Shown: piece after piece, positions 2,644 through 43,255 of the stretch
Layout: every line of letters begins with the position of its first letter
Numbering within the stretch: position 1 is the stretch's first letter
Source of the DNA: Escherichia phage SUT_E520
Strand: one strand, 5' to 3'
Length of the DNA: 64,000 nt
Sequence record: OQ990040
Program-made: the position numbers and the translations under genes
Notes under the pieces: model-generated
Told to the model about the DNA's origin: nothing
The model's database searches: none
Seen by the model: the letters and a program-made list of their open reading frames with translations, nothing else

Positions 2644-3591
2644 TTACTTGTTACGCATATCCATGATCATTTGACCATCGTAGCCAGTACCTACCACAGT
2701 CTGAGGTACACCACCTTGATACTTCTGAGCACGGATCATTTCAACTTCCAGTTGTTTCCAACGAATCATTTCAGGAGTAATGGTACGTTGCAATGCGGCG
2801 TTAGCTTCAGCTTCTTTCTTAGCTGCGTACAGTTTAGCATCTGCGTCACGTTCATTAGCAATAGCTTGGTTGTTACGAGCTTCACGATCTGCTTCTGCTT
2901 GTTTAACTTTTTGCTGTGCTTCCTGTTCAACGCGAGCAAGTTCAGCTTTCGCAGCATTAACTTGCTCTTCACGAACTTTGGTATTCTGTACCTGTTCCAT
3001 GATTACTGGCGGCAAGGTAATATCCTGAAGGAATACCTGCTTAACTGTGTAACCATATGGGCGCGCATACTCTTCAACTTCCTGTTGAATTGCAGTTTGC
3101 AATTGAGCCTGAATTTTAGCATCAAATAAATCTTGTGCTTTAGGTACAGACTTACCAAACTCACGAATAGTAGACAGTAATTTTTCAGTTACATACTTGT
3201 CTAGTGCCTGATCCTGAGTACCTGCGTTAATACGGTTAATCGGTGCTTTAGAACCATCAAACTGCAACATAACAGTCAGGTCAACAGTGGATTTAAACTT
3301 ATCCTGGCTAGGAACCTGAAGTTTATCTAATTTTACAGCAATATCTTTTGTACTAAAAGTATCGAAAGATGCAAACGGGTTTACAAGATGGAAGCCCGGC
3401 AATACTGGATTAGGGTCTACTTTACCCAGGAATGTTTGGGTTTTAACCGTACCATCAGAAACAATAGTATATGAATTAAAAGCTAGGATTAAACCTGCTA
3501 AACCAACTACAGCACCAATACCCCAACGTTTAATAGTACGAATTACTTTCTGCTCAGAAGTCAGTTCTTTCATATTTTTAGTAGCAAACAT
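2644..3591 (-). CDS. SPFH/band-7 (prohibitin/HflKC-like) membrane protein
   Basis: N-terminal transmembrane segment (GIGAVVGLAGLILAF), band-7-like core, long charged coiled-coil tail (AKAELARVEQEAQQKVKQAEADREARNNQAI). Confidence 0.6.
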   Translation of the reverse strand: MFATKNMKELTSEQKVIRTIKRWGIGAVVGLAGLILAFNSYTIVSDGTVKTQTFLGKVDPNPVLPGFHLVNPFASFDTFSTKDIAVKLDKLQVPSQDKFKSTVDLTVMLQFDGSKAPINRINAGTQDQALDKYVTEKLLSTIREFGKSVPKAQDLFDAKIQAQLQTAIQQEVEEYARPYGYTVKQVFLQDITLPPVIMEQVQNTKVREEQVNAAKAELARVEQEAQQKVKQAEADREARNNQAIANERDADAKLYAAKKEAEANAALQRTITPEMIRWKQLEVEMIRAQKYQGGVPQTVVGTGYDGQMIMDMRNK

Positions 3592-3625
3592 ATATTTCCT
3601 TTGTTTTAGTTACAGTTAATAAAAT

Positions 3626-3700
3626 TGGCCGAGGTGACAGGATTCGAACCTGCATAAAGGAATTTAGAAGACTCCTGCCTCTCCCTTAGACTACACCCCG
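3626..3700 (-). tRNA. tRNA-Arg (anticodon UCU); CCA encoded
   Basis: Reverse complement folds as acceptor CGGGGTG/CACCTCG, anticodon stem GGAGT/ATTCC with loop CTTCTAA, T arm GCAGG-TTCGAAT-CCTGT, 3' GCCA. Confidence 0.75.
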
Positions 3701-4202
3701 TTTAAGTATTTTTAAGAACTCTCGTAAAAACTCTTAAAAATACAGACGATACCGGGAGAGTCATAAGTCTCACTCATTAAGTATTTCAAGACAAAATACA
3801 GTAACGTCTATTATTTTCCAGTTTAAGTCAGGGTGACTTAGTGGTTATGTCCTGCGGTATATTGAGGACTCGGTTAGGCTTGGGGTCATGACTTCCCACC
3901 TTTTGCTGCTACTCAACAGGAGTTATCGCGAATTACCTGTGCTATTGTGCACCATTAGTGACATCTCTCATGTCAGCATTTCCCACTTTGTGGATAGCTT
4001 GAAAAACTACTCCGATATGGAGAAAGAACTTCACTATCCTAGAATACCTTCTAAAGTTCTTCTTTAGCCTGGACATAGTTAAATCGTAATAAAACTATTC
4101 AGCAGACTGGTTGGTTAGTCTGGAACCAACTACCGCGTGGTTTAGGCAGTGCGCAACTAACCTCGGAAGCTTTTATGTTAAAAGCATCAGTTATCCAGTT
4201 CT

Positions 4203-4274
4203 TACCGACCGTAGGATTCGAACCTACATCTTCCACCAGTTACGGCTTGATAATACCAATTATACTAGGACGGC
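4203..4274 (-). tRNA. tRNA-like element, possibly degenerate; anticodon not resolved (CGU is one possible reading)
   Basis: Perfect T arm GTAGG-TTCGAAT-CCTAC and 6/7 acceptor pairing, but irregular D and anticodon arms and no encoded CCA. Confidence 0.35.
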
Positions 4275-4497
4275 AGTGTTACTACATAAGTGATTTCCAC
4301 ACCCCACTATTTATAAATCAGAGAAGAGTTTAGGGGAGAGGTTTCAGACGCCTCATTTTACACGTTCTAGCCACTAACCGGGATTGCCGCCCCCTGTGTA
4401 CTAGTTTTACAACTAACCCACCGACTCTATTCAATGCGCTCCGGTTGGGATTCTGCACTCAGCGTAATCGGCTCGCTGTTCCCTAATTTATGAATAT

Positions 4498-4526
4498 ATT
4501 ATACAGAATTTATAAGCATTTAGCAA
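4498..4526 (-). promoter_or_regulatory. sigma70-type early promoter (TTGCTA-17-TATAAT)
   Basis: Minus-strand hexamers at 17-nt spacing; transcribes leftward into the tRNA/noncoding region. Confidence 0.65.
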
Positions 4527-4534
4527 ATGAATTT

Positions 4535-4969
4535 TTAGAAAAATTCACTAGCAATCAAAGCAGTTGTTTTACCGTCATAACGTCCGGGAAATTCTGCCTT
4601 AATAGTTTTCATTAATAGAGCTTTGGTAATACCTGGGTTTAATTTAACCAGTTCTGCAAAATACTCACGAATCTGAACCTCAGTCAGTTGACTTGGCTGA
4701 TACTCTTGCAGCATGGAATAAAGCAGTTGCTCATAGTCTACATCAGTAGGAACTTCCATACCAACTTTAATAGCGCGTTGTTTTGCATTTTCTAGAGCCT
4801 TAATCTGAGCTTTCAGATAGGCTACGAACTCGGTTCGAGTAACAATGTCTTTATCAATACGTTGCAGATCACCAATCATGGTCTGAAGATTAAGTGCCCG
4901 TTCCTTATCACCGTGAGTACGTGCTAGACTAAGTAGTCCACGAAGGGTCATTAGAATATTTTCACCCAT
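4535..4969 (-). CDS. hypothetical protein
   Basis: 144-aa ORF; its ATG overlaps the stop of the upstream small ORF (TAATG). Confidence 0.6.
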   Translation of the reverse strand: MGENILMTLRGLLSLARTHGDKERALNLQTMIGDLQRIDKDIVTRTEFVAYLKAQIKALENAKQRAIKVGMEVPTDVDYEQLLYSMLQEYQPSQLTEVQIREYFAELVKLNPGITKALLMKTIKAEFPGRYDGKTTALIASEFF

Positions 4970-5139
4970 TATTTCATCCCCAATGCTTGGTTAAAAGATT
5001 GTTCTGTCATAACTGCTGAGACTTTGGCGAAATCAAACTTTTTAGGGTTCGTAGTTATTTCAGCAACGTTAGAAGTTTTAACAGTTTTCGTAGTACGAAT
5101 ACCGCGAGTGTTAACACCAATAATTACAACTGATTTCAT
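4969..5139 (-). CDS. hypothetical small protein (56 aa, MKSVVIIGVNTRGIRTTK...), absent from the ORF track
   Basis: ATG 8 nt after RBS GAGAGGAAG directly downstream of the 5171..5199 promoter; stop overlaps the next start. Confidence 0.5.
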   Translation of the reverse strand: MKSVVIIGVNTRGIRTTKTVKTSNVAEITTNPKKFDFAKVSAVMTEQSFNQALGMK

Positions 5140-5170
5140 ATTTCGCTTCCTCTCATTAATTTATGAAAGT

Positions 5171-5199
5171 ATTATACAGAAATTTAAGTAGCTAAGCAA
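5171..5199 (-). promoter_or_regulatory. sigma70-type early promoter (TTGCTT-17-TATAAT)
   Basis: Minus-strand hexamers at 17-nt spacing plus CATAAATTAATGAGAGG leader. Confidence 0.65.
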
Positions 5200-5207
5200 G
5201 TAAATTT

Positions 5208-5657
5208 TTAAGTTTTAGTGACAACAGGTTTATAGAATGTATGTCCCTTAATCTTAGTTGTTTTCTTAAACTTCTTTGTCCAGTAAGGTTTATCTTTACC
5301 ACTATGGAAGTATAGTGCTCCATATGTAGGATCTTGTGGTAAATCAACGTAGTATATCACTCTAGCTAAATTCTTAGCGGTTTGCCAAGCCTCATCAGTT
5401 TTATCAACTTTTGGTCTCTTAGATACCCAAGAGAACTGGTTAGACTGATATACTACTTTACAGTAGGAATCTGGGAATTTACCGGAGTTTACACGGTTTT
5501 TAGTAACATGTGCAATCGCCGTCATTCCCTTTATGCCCTCACCACGACTTTCGAAATAGATATTTTTAGCAATGCAATCTATTTCTTTTGCATCGTGCGA
5601 TGCCTGACTACTAAAGCTGAAGGTAAGGGCAGCTACTAAAAGCAAAGCTGCCTTCAT
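5208..5657 (-). CDS. secreted cell-wall hydrolase, SleB/CwlJ family, with signal peptide
   Basis: ORF track start is TTG; the ATG at MKAALLLVAALTFSFSSQA follows RBS AGGAGT; motifs NIYFESRGE, AIAHVTKNRV, VVYQSNQFSW. Confidence 0.65.
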   Translation of the reverse strand: MKAALLLVAALTFSFSSQASHDAKEIDCIAKNIYFESRGEGIKGMTAIAHVTKNRVNSGKFPDSYCKVVYQSNQFSWVSKRPKVDKTDEAWQTAKNLARVIYYVDLPQDPTYGALYFHSGKDKPYWTKKFKKTTKIKGHTFYKPVVTKT

Positions 5658-5662
5658 TCTTT

Positions 5663-5980
5663 TTACTCCTGCCAATCATATTCAACACGATTGGGATTTT
5701 CTTTATACCCTAAGTCAAGCAAATCATTACGCATATTTTGCTTAGCTACTGGGTTCGAGGTTACTAGTACCACTTTCTTTGGTCTCTGCCCAAATTCTAA
5801 GAGTAAACGAAGAATTTGATAACCTTCCATACCATCTACAGCCAAGTCATTATCCATATAAACGAAATGGCCGGTGGTATCAGTTTTATTCAGAAACTCT
5901 ACAGCGGCTTCTGGGGTTCGAATGATAATGTCCATTCCGTGAAGATTACGCACATCATCAATCAAAATATGAAAAGTCAT
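5663..5980 (-). CDS. stand-alone CheY-like response-regulator receiver domain protein
   Basis: 105 aa; ILIDD acidic pocket, FVYMDNDLAVDGMEGYQILRLL matching the phospho-Asp region, VLVTS (Thr/Ser), LGYKENP (Lys); no output domain. Confidence 0.55.
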   Translation of the reverse strand: MTFHILIDDVRNLHGMDIIIRTPEAAVEFLNKTDTTGHFVYMDNDLAVDGMEGYQILRLLLEFGQRPKKVVLVTSNPVAKQNMRNDLLDLGYKENPNRVEYDWQE

Positions 5981-6010
5981 AATAGCCTCGTTTCATCAAT
6001 TTAAAAATAT

Positions 6011-6039
6011 ATTATACAGATAACTTAGTAACTTAGTAA
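6011..6039 (-). promoter_or_regulatory. sigma70-type early promoter (TTACTA-17-TATAAT)
   Basis: Minus-strand hexamers at 17-nt spacing upstream of the receiver gene. Confidence 0.5.
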
Positions 6040-6430
6040 ATTAGCAAATACATTTTTAAATTGTGAAACTAGTAAACCGATAAACAGCCTAGAGGCGCCA
6101 CAGGCCATATCTTATGAGCCATGTACCTTTGATCTAGGGTTTGAATCATCAACGAATACTTTGCATCTTTTAGCTTTAGAAGTTTAGAAGTTTGAGTTCT
6201 TTAAACTTTTCAGCTTTCATACTTAAATGTTGATCTTTGAAGTTGTGTCGGTAATATCAACGACGCTTTGTTCTTACGTGTCAGCTTAAAAGGCTGGTGT
6301 AATAAACATAATCTCCAATAGATTATACTTTATAGTATGGTCAGCGGTCTTATTTAACCCCGTATTTCAACCGCTGCTGCGAGGTAAGATGCTTGGGCTT
6401 TCGTCTACCGATTTACTAGCTTTTAAATTA

Positions 6431-7069
6431 TTACTCTACTTCAATGAAGGTAGAGGCGTTAGACTCGGACAGAACAAAGTCAACATTTGTTGCAAAGTCC
6501 TGGTATTCCTCGTCATGCTGCTTAATCAACTTCTCCAGTTCCAGCGGATCAATCAAGAATGGAGTATTCTTGAGTTCCAGCAGGTTGAGTTGCATTTTAA
6601 CTTCATCTTCGGAAGTTTTCTTATCACGGGTAGCCATGCTATCCTGCAAACGCTCATATTTAGCATCAAACTGTGCTTTCTGCGTATTAAACTTAACCGT
6701 AGCGGCATGGAACTGCTTACGCATGTTAGCCAGCAGTTGAGCTTTAAGCTCCATAGAACGCTTAGCTTCAATTGCTTCCGCAACAGTCATTTTACGAGAA
6801 CCGATCTCAACGATTGTTTCTGCATTGCTCTTAATCAGAGCAGATTTAATACGATCACGCTGAGACATCATATCCAGCAGAGACTGGAAATCAGTCTTAA
6901 TACGAGTAGACAGATCAGCTACTTCGATTGCAGCGCCAACTACAACCTGGTTTTTATCCTTACCTTCACCAACAGCGATCAGAAGCTGCTGTTCAGTAGC
7001 TTTACGGATTTTAGCTTCCAGAGATTTGATAGTTGCTAGAGCGCGAGTTTTAGAAATACGAGTAGTCAT
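6431..7069 (-). CDS. hypothetical protein, predicted alpha-helical
   Basis: 212-aa ORF behind RBS AAGGAAACAAATA. Confidence 0.6.
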   Translation of the reverse strand: MTTRISKTRALATIKSLEAKIRKATEQQLLIAVGEGKDKNQVVVGAAIEVADLSTRIKTDFQSLLDMMSQRDRIKSALIKSNAETIVEIGSRKMTVAEAIEAKRSMELKAQLLANMRKQFHAATVKFNTQKAQFDAKYERLQDSMATRDKKTSEDEVKMQLNLLELKNTPFLIDPLELEKLIKQHDEEYQDFATNVDFVLSESNASTFIEVE

Positions 7070-7122
7070 TATTTGTTTCCTTATATGAGGTTTGAGATTT
7101 GAATTTGTTTAAAGTTGGTCTA

Positions 7123-7305
7123 TTACAGACCAATTGCCAGCAGAGTGCGCAGAACAGTATCGTTACTGTTATCAATTTTAGGATTAGCACGATTTAGCAG
7201 ATCAAAGATTTTCTGGACACCTGATTGACGTTCAGCCATACGACGGATACCCAGATTACGAGTAGCTTTCTTACCATTTTTACGAACATTTTTAGATACT
7301 GGCAT
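7123..7305 (-). CDS. hypothetical small basic protein
   Basis: 60-aa Lys/Arg-rich ORF behind RBS AAAAGGAAAACAAAT, first gene after the 7346..7374 promoter. Confidence 0.5.
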   Translation of the reverse strand: MPVSKNVRKNGKKATRNLGIRRMAERQSGVQKIFDLLNRANPKIDNSNDTVLRTLLAIGL

Positions 7306-7345
7306 ATTTGTTTTCCTTTTATTGTTTTCTCAAATTTATGAATAT

Positions 7346-7374
7346 ATTATACAGAATTTTGGAGCCGGAAGCAA
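7346..7374 (-). promoter_or_regulatory. sigma70-type early promoter (TTGCTT-17-TATAAT)
   Basis: Minus-strand hexamers at 17-nt spacing plus ATAAATTTGAGAAAAC leader. Confidence 0.65.
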
Positions 7375-7375
7375 A

Positions 7376-8077
7376 TCAAATTTTCATTTTTTCGATCATA
7401 GCTGCAACACAATAGCTTTCAACTAAGGCATCAAATGCAGGATCATGCTTAACCGGATAGATCCCATAACGAATGGTGTCCATCTTCTCCATTTTAGCTT
7501 TTGCCCAGCTAATACCTTCAGCCTCTAGATCTTTGTAACTATAATCAGCTTGCATCCAGAGATTACGAAGAGATCGAACATTGCCCAAATTCCAGAATTT
7601 CCACGGAACTACCTCTTCATTGGTTCCAGCATGGAATGTGTTTGCAGAGTAGATAGTCATATCAAACTCTGGGCCATTACCATAATACAAAGCATTTTCG
7701 CCTAGAGCCAACTCCATAATATTTTGAGCCATAGAGAAGGCAGCATAGTTTGAGCCAAATTTATTAGTGCAATGATGTTTACCATTTTGGAAGGCAATCA
7801 GTTTTGGATTACGTTCCTTCATAGCTTCCATAATGTGAATAGCAGACGGGCTATTTTTAGCTTGATCCATCCAGAATGCTAGAGTAGATGCTGTAACTTT
7901 AGCACCAGAATTAAGCTGATCTTGTACATCCAAAGTAACAAATACTAGATCAGGGTCTTTATCAATTCCATGCATAGCCACAAAAGCGAAAGAAGGCATT
8001 GCGATATGAGTAGTACCACAATCTCCTGGAGTTCCCAGAGATTCAATATCTAGCATACCAAATGGTTTTACTTTCAT
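7376..8077 (-). CDS. putative 3'-5' exonuclease (T4 DexA-like, DEDD fold)
   Basis: N-terminal MLDIESLGT resembles the DexA D-x-E motif (DFETMG); FWMDQAKNSPSA parallels the DexA WWKNQSPEA region. Confidence 0.45.
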   Translation of the reverse strand: MKVKPFGMLDIESLGTPGDCGTTHIAMPSFAFVAMHGIDKDPDLVFVTLDVQDQLNSGAKVTASTLAFWMDQAKNSPSAIHIMEAMKERNPKLIAFQNGKHHCTNKFGSNYAAFSMAQNIMELALGENALYYGNGPEFDMTIYSANTFHAGTNEEVVPWKFWNLGNVRSLRNLWMQADYSYKDLEAEGISWAKAKMEKMDTIRYGIYPVKHDPAFDALVESYCVAAMIEKMKI

Positions 8078-8105
8078 AAGTTATCCTTTATTGTGTAGAA
8101 AACTA

Positions 8106-8342
8106 TTAAAGAGCTGTCTCTTTAATAGACTCCCACTTCTTGGGGTCTTTAAAACCAGGGAGCATATCCTCACTGACATCCCAGTTCTCTTCCATAGAGA
8201 AGTCGGGCCATTCATCCCAACTACCTTCCAACTCTTCATAACAGGTATCCATTACCTCATGACTAGAAAGTCGTGTATAATCCCTAGCTGACTTATGGGT
8301 GGTAGCACGGTTAAAATCATTCTTTGCCACAAAATTACGCAT
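8106..8342 (-). CDS. hypothetical small acidic Trp-rich protein
   Basis: 78-aa ORF; C-terminal half is Asp/Glu/Trp-rich (EELEGSWDEWPDFSMEENWDVSEDM). Confidence 0.5.
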   Translation of the reverse strand: MRNFVAKNDFNRATTHKSARDYTRLSSHEVMDTCYEELEGSWDEWPDFSMEENWDVSEDMLPGFKDPKKWESIKETAL

Positions 8343-8357
8343 AGTTTCTCCAAATAA

Positions 8358-8380
8358 GAGGGGCTTTCGCCCCCTGATTT
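8358..8380. terminator. GC hairpin, intergenic terminator or attenuator
   Basis: GGGGC-TTTC-GCCCC hairpin flanked by A/T runs on both strands. Confidence 0.45.
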
Positions 8381-8383
8381 AAA

Positions 8384-8599
8384 TCACTTGCCCAGCAGTT
8401 TAAGGATATTTTCCATAATAGTTTGGGCAGATTTTTCACTCTTGTTGGTTTCAGCCAACTTTAAAGCGAGTTCTTCCTGCTGTTTCTGAATATCAGCTGC
8501 GATTTTTTGATCAGCCTCAATACGAGCTTGAAGCTCATCAGTGATAGTGGTAAAGGAAGCAACGATTTCAGTAACAGAACGTGGTTTCTTAGAGAACAT
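8384..8599 (-). CDS. hypothetical small helical protein
   Basis: 71-aa ORF behind RBS AAGGATATTTTTT. Confidence 0.5.
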   Translation of the reverse strand: MFSKKPRSVTEIVASFTTITDELQARIEADQKIAADIQKQQEELALKLAETNKSEKSAQTIMENILKLLGK

Positions 8600-40905: not shown

Positions 40906-43255
40906 GACACTAAAATTTAGTAACGTTATGTCTTACGGTAAGGACATCGTAATTCATCTCGATAAGAATCCCGTTACTCAACTAATCGGGGGCAATGGGC
41001 TAGGGAAATCTACAATTGCTACTGTTATTGAAGAACTATTCTATAATAAGAACTCACGCGGTATTAAGAANNNNNNNNNNNNNNNNNNNNNNNNNNNNNN
41101 NNNNNNNNNNNNNNNNNNNNNNNNNNNNNNNNNNNNNNNNNNNNNNNNNNNNNNNNNNNNNNNNNNNNNNAATGGGCTAGGGAAATCTACAATTGCTACT
41201 GTTATTGAAGAACTATTCTATAATAAGAACTCACGCGGTATTAAGAAAGATGCTCTGTTCTCTTGGTCTTCTCCGAAAAAAGAATACGATATGCACGCTT
41301 ATTTCTCGAAAGATGAGGATGAGTATGAACTGCATAAAGTAGTTAAGTCAACTGCTAAAGTAACTCTTATTAAGAATGGGGAAGATATTAGTGGACACAC
41401 GGCAACCCAAACATACAAGATGATTGAAGAAATTATGGGTGGTGACTTCCAAACATTCACCAAACTGATTTATCAATCGGTGGGCTCCAATCTAGACTTT
41501 CTAAAAGCAACGGATGCAACACGTAAGGCTTTTCTTGTTAACTTGTTCAATCAAGAACAGTATAAAGAAATGTCAGAAACTATTAAGGCTGACCGTAAAG
41601 AAATAGCAAATACCTTAAACAATTTGCAAGGCCAAATGGCTGTAATTACGAAAATCCTTAATGGAAAGAATAATCTAGGAACTCTACAGGAACCTGTAGA
41701 AGTACCGGAGTTTGATGAAGAACCATTAGCACAAGAACTTACTGAATCGAAAATTAAGGCGGCATTAGCCAAGTCTCAAGAGGCTAATATTACTAAATTG
41801 CGTAATTTGGACAAAGCTGTACAAGTTGCCGAACAATCTTTCGAACCTTTCAAAAATTTACCCGCGCCCACCGACCAAAACGAAGAGATCTCAAGTGTTA
41901 CGCGTGACCTAACGATTGTGACCTCACGTGCTGGTGAAGTTAAGAAACGTTATCAGAAGTTCAAGCAAGAGGCTTCAAATACTGAATGTCCTACTTGTGG
42001 TACTCATCTGGANNNNNNNNNNNNNNNNNNNNNNNNNNNNNNNNNNNNNNNNNNNNNNNNNNNNNNNNNNNNNNNNNNNNNNNNNNNNNNNNNNNNNNNN
42101 NNNNNNNNNNNNGAAGTTAAGAAACGTTATCAGAAGTTCAAGCAAGAGGCTTCAAATACTGAATGTCCTACTTGTGGTACTCATCTGGATACAACTGCCG
42201 CTCAAAAAGCAATGGATATGGCTAGAACAGAATATGATCCTCTGTTCAAAGAGAAGCAATCTCTTGAAGCTAAGCTAGAACAGTTGAGGAAAGAACAACT
42301 TGAGTACGTTGCGTATATTAGAGCAAAGGATGCCTTGGATAAAGCAGTGGTAGCTAGGGACGAGTTCAAAAATTCAATGAGTGATGCTTCTTTTGAAGAA
42401 CTCAATGTGCAAATCCTACAGGTGCAAATCCGACAATTAGAACAGGAAATCGCTGATGGNNNNNNNNNNNNNNNNNNNNNNNNNNNNNNNNNNNNNNNNN
42501 NNNNNNNNNNNNNNNNNNNNNNNNNNNNNNNNNNNNNNNNNNNNNNNNNNNNNNNNNNNGATGCTTCTTTTGAAGAACTCAATGTGCAAATCCTACAGGT
42601 GCAAATCCGACAATTAGAACAGGAAATCGCTGATGGACGTTCTAAGGTTGCAATTGCCAAAGAGCATAATGCAAATGTCGAATTAGCCAATGCAAAATAT
42701 AAAGCGAAACTAGAACAGATTGAGAAAGCTGAAGCAGAAATGTCCGAGATTACTTCCAAATTAAATGAAGTATCAGAAGCTGTTGCTGATCTCGATATTC
42801 TGATTGCTGCATTGAAGAATTTAGTAGGATATAAACTAGAGCATAGTGTGAAAGTATTTGAAGAACTAATTAATAAATACCTTTCTATTATGACTGGCGG
42901 TAAATTCGCACTTGGATTTGAACTTGATGAAACAAAATTACAAGTAGTAATCTTCAATGATGGAAATCGTACCAGTATGGAGAACTGCTCTACTGGTCAA
43001 CAGAGTCGAATTAACCTAGCAACCCTGTTAGCTATTCGGATGCTGTTAACATCTATTAGTAAAGTTAATATTAATCTTCTATTCCTTGATGAAGTAATTA
43101 GCTTTATTGATACGAAAGGACTTGACACTCTTGTTGAATTATTAAACGAGGAAGAAAGTCTAAATTCTATCATTGTTTCTCATGGGCATACGCATCCACT
43201 AGCTCATAAGATTACTGTCAAAAAAGATGCAGAAGGATTTTCCTACTTAGAATAA
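40886..43255 (+). CDS. SbcC/Rad50-like ATPase; contains three duplication/N-run artefacts
   Basis: Start MSKITIKTLKF overlaps the SbcD stop; Walker A GGNGLGKST, long coiled coil, C-terminal LLFLDEVISFIDTKG; real length about 612 aa after removing three 177-nt insertions. Confidence 0.7.
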   Translation: MSKITIKTLKFSNVMSYGKDIVIHLDKNPVTQLIGGNGLGKSTIATVIEELFYNKNSRGIKXXXXXXXXXXXXXXXXXXXXXXXXXXXXXXXXXXNGLGKSTIATVIEELFYNKNSRGIKKDALFSWSSPKKEYDMHAYFSKDEDEYELHKVVKSTAKVTLIKNGEDISGHTATQTYKMIEEIMGGDFQTFTKLIYQSVGSNLDFLKATDATRKAFLVNLFNQEQYKEMSETIKADRKEIANTLNNLQGQMAVITKILNGKNNLGTLQEPVEVPEFDEEPLAQELTESKIKAALAKSQEANITKLRNLDKAVQVAEQSFEPFKNLPAPTDQNEEISSVTRDLTIVTSRAGEVKKRYQKFKQEASNTECPTCGTHLXXXXXXXXXXXXXXXXXXXXXXXXXXXXXXXXXXEVKKRYQKFKQEASNTECPTCGTHLDTTAAQKAMDMARTEYDPLFKEKQSLEAKLEQLRKEQLEYVAYIRAKDALDKAVVARDEFKNSMSDASFEELNVQILQVQIRQLEQEIADXXXXXXXXXXXXXXXXXXXXXXXXXXXXXXXXXXDASFEELNVQILQVQIRQLEQEIADGRSKVAIAKEHNANVELANAKYKAKLEQIEKAEAEMSEITSKLNEVSEAVADLDILIAALKNLVGYKLEHSVKVFEELINKYLSIMTGGKFALGFELDETKLQVVIFNDGNRTSMENCSTGQQSRINLATLLAIRMLLTSISKVNINLLFLDEVISFIDTKGLDTLVELLNEEESLNSIIVSHGHTHPLAHKITVKKDAEGFSYLE

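Follow-up and report, generated by a model that had tools for sequence, protein, structure and literature searches.

Why should a phage that already possesses a complete holin, endolysin and spanin set keep, in nearly every genome of its kind, a second wall enzyme that is apparently holin-independent, and how does the infected cell tolerate an exported hydrolase from early times? Both puzzles are raised by a small gene in the 64,000-nucleotide stretch of Escherichia phage SUT_E520 (OQ990040) that we analysed at full length and refer to as the window. We consider the best overall explanation, at a blended probability of roughly 0.6, to be that the product is an exported periplasmic enzyme with an accessory role in lysis. 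The gene and its ribosome-binding site are as follows:

5208..5657, minus strand: coding sequence of the predicted exported SleB/CwlJ-fold hydrolase, ortholog of T5.083 (ORF, Pfam, tblastn, AlphaFold, Foldseek)
5666..5670, minus strand: Shine-Dalgarno sequence AGGAG, 8 nt 5' of the hydrolase ATG (read from the sequence)

The reading frame extends from an ATG at 5657-5655 to a TAA stop at 5210-5208 and encodes a precursor of 149 aa (16.9 kDa, pI 9.7). Its longest reading begins at TTG 5675, but the credible start, judged from the sequence, is the ATG, which is preceded by the strong Shine-Dalgarno sequence touching the stop codon of the upstream gene (5665-5663) and which coincides with the annotated start of T5.083. 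The window DNA is 100% identical to that of phages SUT_E1520 and SUT_E420, which places it in the genus Tequintavirus, and sequence comparison identifies the hydrolase gene as orthologous to T5.083 of phage T5 (YP_006911). The two proteins are equal in length and 96.6% identical (tblastn), with five amino-acid substitutions and with 12 synonymous and 5 non-synonymous codon changes between the genes. The neighbors are likewise equal, with T5.084 (cREC_REC) upstream and T5.082 (DUF7616) downstream, as are the promoter positions, so we treat the two as the same gene with no substantive difference. An Rfam match to snoR83 at 5619-5697 was rejected as noise (23 bits against a threshold of 40, E 0.56), and the Rfam scan of 3500-8500 returned nothing related to the hydrolase gene.

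Orthologs across the Markadamsvirinae carry annotations such as "SleB putative cell wall hydrolase", "spore cortex-lytic enzyme precursor" and "endolysin". The gene is thus already known from hundreds of T5-like genomes; its early-region placement far from the holin has also been remarked in print, so the present finding changes little. The literature searched yielded genome-description papers only and contained no experiment, biochemical or genetic, on T5.083 or a close ortholog. At 80% amino-acid identity or above, the hydrolase occurs in about 435 phage records, compared to about 441 for the tail tube protein, and in the 60-80% band the corresponding counts are 85 and 96 records. These counts point to near-universal retention among relatives.

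What the protein is likely to do can be addressed from its domain, its fold and its conserved residues:

5232..5543, minus strand: Hydrolase_2 (SleB/CwlJ catalytic) domain, residues 39-142 by the Pfam envelope (Pfam, PDB, Foldseek)
5550..5552, minus strand: codon of Glu36, within the motif Y-F-E-S-R-G-E (HMMER alignment to 4F55/4FET)
5574..5576, minus strand: codon of Cys28, first of a conserved Cys pair (alignment A1)
5460..5462, minus strand: codon of Cys66, second of the conserved Cys pair (alignment A1)

The original prediction, made from the letters alone, had recognized SleB/CwlJ motifs, and profile and structure searches bear it out. The protein matches Pfam PF07486 (Hydrolase_2) over the whole model (1-100 of 100) with 89 bits against a cut-off of 27 (E 3.4e-25), PHROG 938 "endolysin" (E 1.2e-29) and, among PDB sequences, the SleB catalytic domains 4F55 and 4FET (E about 1e-8); as a sequence match, the family assignment is far beyond chance. 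An AlphaFold model (pLDDT 90.6, pTM 0.82) has these same two structures as its sole significant Foldseek matches in the PDB, each with probability 1.00, with TM scores normalized by target of 0.79 (4FET) and 0.71 (4F55) and an rmsd of 2.4-2.8 A. Similarity to SleB in both structure and sequence begins at about residue 22.

The likeness to SleB is one of catalytic domain rather than of whole protein. Identity to Bacillus SleB is about 30%, and the NCBIfam equivalog profile for SleB (TIGR02869) gives 50.4 bits compared to its cut-off of 236.5, with positions 79-201 of 201 aligned. Unlike SleB, the hydrolase has no N-terminal peptidoglycan-binding domain but does have a predicted signal peptide of Gram-negative type as well as a Cys pair; like CwlJ, it consists of a single domain. 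E. coli makes no spore cortex, and to our knowledge no YpeB or GerQ partner is to be expected for the window hydrolase.

In the HMMER alignment to 4F55 and 4FET, E36 falls on the first Glu of the SleB motif Y-G-E-S-R-G-E. In the general form of this motif that the two proteins share, Y-x-E-x-R-G-E, we take the first Glu to be the catalytic Glu of SleB (E157/E151). E36 and 11 other positions are invariant across 35 sequences with identities as low as 32%. Sources that do not specify the residue (PMC11148199 among them) report that SleB has an essential catalytic Glu, and we take E36 to be the putative catalytic glutamate of the hydrolase. Because the protein has the SleB/CwlJ fold and places E36 at the presumed catalytic position, it most likely cuts glycan strands, and by analogy with the chemistry of Bacillus SleB it probably acts as a lytic transglycosylase. 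Bacillus SleB requires muramic-delta-lactam, which is absent from the wall of E. coli, so its substrate and bond specificity cannot be transferred to the phage enzyme.

In alignment A1, C28 is at least 90% conserved and C66 is invariant. Both cysteines occur together in T5-like, Sugarland and Aeromonas phage proteins and both are missing from the proteins of PAK_P4 and the Vequintavirus CM1 and from Bacillus SleB. From this pattern, Cys28 and Cys66 probably form a periplasmic disulfide.

The second part of the original prediction was a signal peptide:

5601..5657, minus strand: predicted Sec (signal peptidase I) signal peptide, codons 1-19, MKAALLLVAALTFSFSSQA (n/h/c rule of thumb)

By this rule of thumb a signal peptide has a positive n-region, an h-region of 7-15 residues, small residues at -3 and -1 and no lipobox. 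The hydrolase begins M-K, continues with 15 uncharged residues (AALLLVAALTFSFSS) and then reads S-Q-A|S; K2 supplies the charge, the core measures 13-15 residues, and S-Q-A occupies positions 17-19. The predicted cut, SQA|SHD, would leave a mature protein of 130 aa and 15.0 kDa. Since there is no lipobox Cys, the first Cys lying at position 28, a lipoprotein reading was rejected. The hydrophobic core contains no Gly, and no 19-residue window reaches the transmembrane-level hydropathy of 1.6. In nearly all of 34 homologues the same n/h/AXA build recurs with a different sequence, 6-9 residues before the conserved Cys; forms of the cleavage site seen in relatives include SHA, VQA, AIA, AKA and VKA. 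The claim of a signal peptide is upheld to the extent that such a rule allows, and we predict that the hydrolase is exported via Sec and cleaved after Ser-Gln-Ala19.

The genomic setting determines when such an enzyme would be made and whether it belongs to a lysis cassette:

5663..5980, minus strand: upstream gene for a cREC_REC receiver-domain protein, 105 aa, ortholog of T5.084 with 96.2% identity (Pfam, PHROG, tblastn)
6011..6040, minus strand: sigma-70 promoter-like TTTACT-18-TATAAT before the cREC_REC/hydrolase pair (consensus scan and T5 annotation)
5171..5199, minus strand: promoter-like TTGCTT-17-TATAAT (read from the sequence and T5 annotation)

The cREC_REC gene, whose product matches Pfam PF20274 (E 3.8e-15) and PHROG 1479, is separated from the hydrolase gene by 5 nt, and the two probably share one transcript. 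The site at 6011..6040 occupies the same place as an annotated T5 promoter (T5 43067-43141), and from this homology we infer its promoter function. The second site begins 9 nt past the hydrolase stop codon, at the position of the T5 promoter "P-D/E 33", which drives T5.082/T5.081; it was not listed by the consensus scan because its -35 element matches at only 3 of 6 positions. No terminator-like site was detected in 3899-8102, and hence none between the hydrolase gene and this promoter; the lone one near the block, at 3881-3898, is on the plus strand. The position corresponds to the T5 early gene block, between annotated promoters, and the T5 gene clusters, including the early cluster in which T5.083 lies, have been described (PMC8624392). 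In the relative Bas33, RNA-seq representing a single 20 min snapshot gives about 1400-1600 TPM for the syntenic 450-nt gene, an ortholog chosen by gene order, lengths and spacing and not by sequence.

Among the neighbors of the hydrolase gene in the window we found no transmembrane segments and no holin-like or periplasmic inhibitor/immunity-like genes, nor was a holin-like or immunity-like gene found beside the genes of distant homologues. PADLOC returned no match for the hydrolase or its neighbors except a weak, sub-threshold match of the YqeY-like protein, so that exclusion of competitors, one of the roles first suggested, is neither supported nor contradicted. Homologues of lys, holin and spanins are absent from the whole 64-kb window; in T5 and SUT_E420 the canonical holin, L-Ala-D-Glu peptidase and spanin genes are also early-region genes of the same strand, some 20 kb distant, and neither a holin nor a spanin gene adjoins the hydrolase gene. 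Early placement away from a lysis cassette, as first proposed, is therefore what the T5 comparison indicates. A role other than lysis had also been argued from this placement, but that argument is weak: because the lysis genes of T5-like phages are themselves early-region genes, position cannot separate lysis from non-lysis roles. Wall turnover before lysis is nonetheless a possible role for the hydrolase.

These observations suggest the following model. Host RNA polymerase would transcribe the hydrolase and cREC_REC genes from the early-region promoter, as T5 homology and the Bas33 snapshot suggest. Sec would export the 149-aa precursor, cleavage after Ser-Gln-Ala19 would free a basic, 15-kDa, single-domain enzyme in the periplasm, and the Cys28/Cys66 disulfide would form there. 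The mature enzyme would then cut peptidoglycan within its glycan strands, probably by lytic transglycosylase action, providing a second muralytic activity beside the cytoplasmic, holin-dependent L-Ala-D-Glu peptidase (T5.040 type). Because it would reach the wall without the holin, this activity would be independent of the peptidase route. During the latent period the enzyme may weaken or pre-cut glycan strands, acting in full after the membrane potential has been collapsed by the holin and the stems have been severed by the peptidase; the outcome would be quicker or more complete lysis together with partial redundancy. That the hydrolase is an exported periplasmic peptidoglycan-cleaving enzyme appears very likely, while an accessory part in lysis as its main role is a tentative proposal to which we give slightly less than even odds.

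A CRISPRi-ART screen of T5 scored the holin as "Fit" and both lys and T5.083 as "Not Fit" (PMC11879866 supplement), a pattern that two redundant wall-cutting enzymes could produce. As many T5 structural genes are also scored "Not Fit" (PMC11879866 supplement), the screen is insensitive and proves neither redundancy nor dispensability. Against the model, early synthesis of an exported wall hydrolase that is active should put the cell at risk before phage assembly has finished, and the occurrence of Hydrolase_2 genes away from holins in unrelated phages fits a function before lysis equally well.

Such a function is the first alternative, in which the hydrolase remodels or turns over the wall during the latent period instead of acting at lysis; possible effects include loosening of the sacculus, a block of division, or release of muropeptides or precursors for recycling, in which case the hydrolase would be an auxiliary metabolic gene. 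Several unrelated lineages of large virulent phages have Hydrolase_2 genes among early or nucleotide-metabolism genes and not beside holins. Among them are Pseudomonas phages PAK_P3 (gp151) and PAK_P4 (gp154), whose Hydrolase_2 proteins also have an N-terminal hydrophobic segment, and the authors of the PAK_P3 study propose that gp151 degrades the wall during infection and thereby accounts for a build-up of cell-wall precursors (PMC4933390). Holin-independent export, by which the enzyme would meet its substrate once made, and the complete holin, endolysin and spanin set that the phage already owns point the same way. However, the PAK_P3 idea is its authors' proposal and was made for a homologue, about 35% identical, that differs from the window hydrolase in its longer, anchor-like N-terminus and in having no Cys pair, and the early position is, as for any role, non-discriminating. 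We regard turnover before lysis as a rather unlikely main role.

A more specific form of the lysis role, which we consider speculative and unlikely, is that the hydrolase is a gated second endolysin, harmless in the periplasm from early infection and lytic only upon a trigger. The trigger might be the holin-driven collapse of membrane potential. Bacillus SleB acts on stem-less muramic-delta-lactam, and alternatively the L-Ala-D-Glu peptidase might strip stems and so yield the peptide-poor glycan that SleB-type active sites favor. Two unlinked enzymes would then constitute an ordered two-step degradation of the wall, with either one sufficing for plaque formation. The CRISPRi-ART scores, the near-universal retention and the lack of a nearby inhibitor gene are consistent with such gating. 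By analogy, the toxicity in E. coli of other SleB-fold proteins by themselves (PMC7344957, PMC11148199) argues against gating by substrate.

Of these toxic proteins, one group is from the Vequintavirinae, virulent phages of enterobacteria in which Hydrolase_2 is likewise combined with a predicted signal peptide (Pectobacterium phage CB7 gp83 and Cronobacter phage CR3 gp87), with about 40% identity to the window hydrolase over the domain. Expression of these signal-peptide SleB-like proteins is toxic, and the homologue from CR3 has been linked to lysis (PMC7344957). In Certrevirus a small candidate holin with two transmembrane segments overlaps the gene (PMC7344957), whereas the window hydrolase has no membrane-protein neighbor, and the Vequintavirinae lack the classic lysis cassette (PMC7344957) that T5-like phages possess. 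The other is T6EC3, a periplasmic type VI secretion effector with the SleB fold that causes E. coli cells to round and burst; its toxicity hinges on the Glu matching the catalytic Glu of SleB and is abolished by an E-to-Q change (PMC11148199). It shows that SleB-fold domains are active in the periplasm of E. coli, and together with the Vequintavirinae proteins it supports the model of an accessory lysis enzyme. T6EC3 is needle-delivered between bacteria, is fused to an effector N-terminal part and has a periplasmic immunity protein, while the phage gene has no immunity-like neighbor.

An endolysin with a signal-anchor-release (SAR) segment would account in another way for tolerance of early synthesis, since its uncleaved N-terminal stretch tethers the inactive enzyme in the inner membrane until depolarization. 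The hydrolase, a putative muralytic enzyme of a phage with a Gram-negative host, shares the hydrophobic stretch at its N-terminus with the SAR layout known from P1 Lyz and phage 21 R, and the distant homologues P0046, P0053 and PAK_P4 have N-termini that are longer, Ser/Thr-rich or uncleavable-looking. A SAR segment, however, stays uncleaved and spans the membrane with at least about 18-20 residues that are weakly hydrophobic and rich in Gly/Ala, and the hydrolase instead has the short, Gly-free core of sub-transmembrane hydropathy described above, followed by a cleavage site that recurs in relatives; we judge this possibility very unlikely. Known exported endolysins can still be compared with the hydrolase. 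Oenococcus phage fOg44 Lys44, P1 Lyz and 21 R are all exported independently of a holin, which is thought to time lysis through collapse of the membrane potential and not through enzyme release. Each is its phage's only endolysin and is encoded in a lysis cassette, whereas the window hydrolase would come in addition to another endolysin, is encoded apart from the holin, has another fold and lacks SAR features.

It is still less probable that the gene is non-catalytic or decaying, encoding a wall-binding protein or a remnant. Although the "Not Fit" score of T5.083 in the knock-down screen would agree with this, the putative catalytic Glu is invariant together with 11 other positions, the Pfam match is full-length and above threshold, close relatives almost all keep the gene, and synonymous changes outnumber non-synonymous ones relative to T5.

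Phages often bear wall hydrolases in the tail tip, but entry of T5 is attributed to the tape-measure protein pb2. Remodelling at entry, which had been offered as an example of a role and which would need a virion-carried enzyme opening the wall for DNA injection, is scarcely credible for the infecting particle, as the hydrolase would be made after DNA entry, its gene lies in the early block outside the structural module (about 37 kb away from where large ORFs of a presumed structural block first appear in the window, near 45.7 kb), its export signal would route it away from cytoplasmic assembly, and just 16 particle-associated proteins are reported for T5 (PMC8624392).

As a small, basic and predicted self-exporting protein, the hydrolase may interest enzybiotic work. 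An answer to the puzzles raised here would help in reading the many annotations of a "second endolysin" among large virulent phages and would inform how lysis is timed when an enzyme already sits at its substrate.

The hydrolase gene and its immediate surroundings comprise the following features.

5657 (ATG) to 5210-5208 (TAA), minus strand: hydrolase coding sequence, 149 aa, from the ORF reading
5663-5980, minus strand: neighbour on the T5.084 side, cREC_REC receiver domain (PF20274, E 3.8e-15)
4969-5139: neighbour on the T5.082 side, DUF7616, also present in the window
6040-6011: promoter-like sigma-70 site TTTACT-18-TATAAT ahead of the cREC_REC gene, matching the position of an annotated T5 promoter
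5199-5171: promoter-like TTGCTT-17-TATAAT directly past the hydrolase stop, corresponding to T5 promoter "P-D/E 33"

The longest version of the reading frame in the ORF listing begins at TTG 5675. Because an AGGAG (5670-5666), abutting the stop of the preceding gene (5665-5663), lies 8 nt before ATG 5657, we place the start at this ATG, a choice that is credible on sequence grounds and agrees with the phage T5 annotation.

The product belongs to Pfam family Hydrolase_2 (PF07486, "Cell Wall Hydrolase", the SleB/CwlJ catalytic domain), matching the whole model at 89 bits (cut-off 27; E 3.4e-25), and to PHROG 938 "endolysin" (E 1.2e-29). Among solved structures it resembles, by sequence, only 4F55 and 4FET, both of them catalytic domains of SleB from Bacillus (E ~1e-8). 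An AlphaFold model built with 35 homologues as input (pLDDT 90.6, pTM 0.82) has SleB 4FET/4F55 as its only significant Foldseek matches in the PDB (probability 1.00; target-normalised TM 0.79/0.71, rmsd 2.4-2.8 A over 120-123 columns). The SleB/CwlJ motifs named in the original prediction are therefore right, far above chance in Pfam, PHROG, PDB sequence and Foldseek comparisons. The protein is not SleB proper: missing the N-terminal peptidoglycan-binding domain, it reaches only 50 bits in the NCBIfam SleB equivalog model (cut-off 236.5), and the spore substrate of SleB cannot be available to it.

HMMER aligns Y34-F-E36-S-R-G-E40 of the hydrolase with Y-G-E-S-R-G-E of SleB. We take the catalytic Glu of SleB to be the first Glu of this motif, and the residue arithmetic of the SleB alignment agrees. 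In an alignment of 35 homologues, with identity down to 32%, the residue at this putative catalytic position is kept: Y34, E36, E40, G44, R55, C66, V68, V69, Q74, W77, H139, and F141 are invariant, and C28 is at least 90% conserved. An essential catalytic Glu is described for the SleB lytic transglycosylase, the residue being unnamed (PMC11148199, PMC12331253).

The N-terminus was judged by the classical rules for signal peptides (n/h/c regions, -3/-1, lipobox, and hydropathy), a rule-based prediction. It consists of M-K, 15 uncharged residues (AALLLVAALTFSFSS), and Q-A; positions -3 and -1 hold small residues (S-Q-A|S-H-D). There is no lipobox because the first Cys is residue 28. The hydrolase has the sequence features of a signal-peptidase-I substrate, with a predicted mature protein of 130 aa (15.0 kDa, pI 9.7). 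This three-part layout is found in nearly all homologues, spelled in unrelated letters (SHA|T, VQA|Q, AIA|S, AKA|D, VKA|N, and VFA|S), the cleavage-site build always lying 6-9 residues ahead of the conserved Cys. Retention of the kind of sequence while its letters change is the mark of a functional signal peptide. Both the n/h/c build and its recurrence thus give good support to the predicted cleaved Sec signal, in agreement with the original prediction of a secreted enzyme. The hydrophobic core contains zero Gly, and no 19-residue window of the hydrolase has a Kyte-Doolittle mean as high as 1.6. An uncleaved membrane anchor, as in signal-anchor-release (SAR) endolysins, would account for a hydrophobic N-terminus but fits poorly, as the sequence features of SAR endolysins are lacking; tethering of this kind has a small probability.

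Both hydrolase cysteines are present jointly in the T5-like, Sugarlandvirus, and Aeromonas phage proteins, while Pakpunavirus and Vequintavirus proteins have neither at those columns and Bacillus SleB has Leu and Ser. C28 and C66 probably form a disulfide in the periplasm.

Over the 3.6 kb around the gene, identity is 100% to Escherichia phages SUT_E1520 and SUT_E420 and 97-99.8% to many Tequintavirus genomes. The protein shares 96.6% of its residues with T5.083, located at 42290-42739 in the T5 reference between T5.084 and T5.082, and the genes differ at 12 synonymous and 5 non-synonymous codons; loss of function is a slight possibility. Matches at 80% identity or more number ~435 phage records (~441 for the window's tail tube protein), and those at 60-80% number 85 (tail tube, 96). 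The gene is, on these record counts, nearly universal in the subfamily. By organism name only, Vibrio is the commonest among tail-tube matches (357 records) and falls outside the ten commonest for the hydrolase, which has 1273 matching phage records in total. Public records call the product "SleB putative cell wall hydrolase", "spore cortex-lytic enzyme precursor", "cell wall hydrolase", or "endolysin", and published work has already discussed the gene.

The hydrolase gene follows the cREC_REC gene by 5 nt. From 3899 to 8102 the scan lists no terminator-like site; the nearest to the block, and the sole one in its vicinity, is on the plus strand at 3881-3898. T5 genes form three clusters, of which the second comprises 111 early genes (PMC8624392) and includes T5.083. 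In published RNA-seq of the Tequintavirus Bas33 at 20 min, bas33_0077 reached 1630 and 1410 TPM, compared to 5136/3009 for the major capsid gene and 718/408 for the tail tube gene (PMC13250531 Dataset S1). This gene was assigned as the ortholog by synteny, not sequence: both are 450 nt long, with a 68-nt gap to a 171-nt gene and identical gene order. Early-region position and this single Bas33 snapshot support an expressed early-region gene.

RNA-related genes surround the hydrolase: cREC_REC, a YqeY-like protein (4535-4969), tRNA genes, and an exoribonuclease-like gene at 7376-8077 (minus strand). The last, called 'metallopeptidase', 'exonuclease', or 'recombination-related exonuclease' in records, has a Pfam Rv2179c-like 3'-5' exoribonuclease domain (E 5e-8). 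Directly upstream of the hydrolase, cREC_REC is a stand-alone 'cyclic-phosphate processing receiver' domain; the Bas33 gene in its place is 822 nt long, compared to 318 nt here, so an extra domain may be present in relatives. A 450-nt stretch without ORFs (5981-6430), containing the 6040-6011 promoter-like site and giving no match in an Rfam scan, separates it from 6431-7069 (minus strand). The 'tail fiber protein' label of this early-block gene (PHROG 1491, many records) looks doubtful; its product has no Pfam match, and the Bas33 counterpart reaches ~6900-8500 TPM at 20 min. A second tRNA at 4203-4274 (minus strand; Rfam 35.5 bits, threshold 29; not reported by ARAGORN) lies within an ORF-poor stretch of ~830 nt (3701-4534) corresponding to T5 'RNAX, stable RNA with unknown functions'. 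A single membrane protein is encoded within 3 kb of the hydrolase, the SPFH/Band 7 protein at 2644-3591 (minus strand). This ortholog of T5.080 has one hydrophobic segment, at its N-terminus, and is annotated 'lipoprotein'.

The T5 holin (T5.041), L-Ala-D-Glu peptidase endolysin (T5.040), and spanins (T5.044/045) are encoded at 19.9-23.2 kb, and the SUT_E420 peptidase/holin pair at 19.9-20.9 kb; no holin, peptidase, or spanin genes occur inside the 64-kb window. The hydrolase gene is ~20 kb from the lysis cassette and unlinked to it, and the protein was rejected as a cassette endolysin. However, the T5 lysis genes share early block, strand, and promoter type with T5.083, and because they are early genes themselves, position is no argument against a lysis role. 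The original prediction, which drew a non-lysis role from early placement, described a real feature rightly; such a role is possible but gains no support from that argument. In a transcriptome-wide CRISPRi-ART T5 screen, T5.083 was "Not Fit" (5 guides, mean -3.97, p 0.73), as were lys and the spanins, with holin C1 "Fit" (PMC11879866 supplement). Two wall enzymes that are redundant and share one holin would produce such a pattern, but these data carry no weight because many virion and replication genes were also "Not Fit" (PMC11879866 supplement).

We estimate a probability of roughly 0.85-0.9 that the hydrolase is an exported periplasmic peptidoglycan-cleaving enzyme. Made from the early region, it would be exported by Sec, stabilised by a disulfide, and cut glycan strands, probably as a lytic transglycosylase, providing a second, holin-independent muralytic activity beside the holin-dependent peptidase. 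A SleB-fold T6SS effector acting in the periplasm makes E. coli cells round up and burst, an effect lost upon an E-to-Q change (PMC11148199); therefore, the fold can act on ordinary Gram-negative walls. A Vequintavirinae homologue with a predicted signal peptide is toxic upon expression in E. coli, the CR3 homologue is implicated in lysis, and the Certrevirus gene is overlapped by one for a small two-TM protein (PMC7344957). That the hydrolase is accessory to lysis is a tentative reading, falling slightly short of even odds. Wall turnover before lysis is rather unlikely; the authors of a PAK_P3 study suggest that the cell-wall-hydrolase-like gp151 may account for the wall-precursor build-up seen in infection (PMC4933390). 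A virion role has only a small share.

Homologue genes lie among nucleotide-metabolism or other non-lysis genes in Pakpunavirus PAK_P4, Vequintavirus CM1, Aeromonas phage 4L372XY, and two kinds of 85-95 kb environmental phage contigs, and no membrane-protein neighbours were seen in these. In large virulent phages of unrelated lineages and in environmental contigs of 85-95 kb (loci L005-L010), Hydrolase_2 genes adjoin Metallophos, Thy1, dGTP diphosphohydrolase, DNA ligase, HD-domain, or rIIA genes, not holins. In one subgroup (distant homologues P0046 and P0053, with their relatives) the N-terminus is rich in Ser and Thr and shows no clear cleavage site. Large virulent phages that infect Gram-negative bacteria commonly encode exported SleB-like hydrolases.
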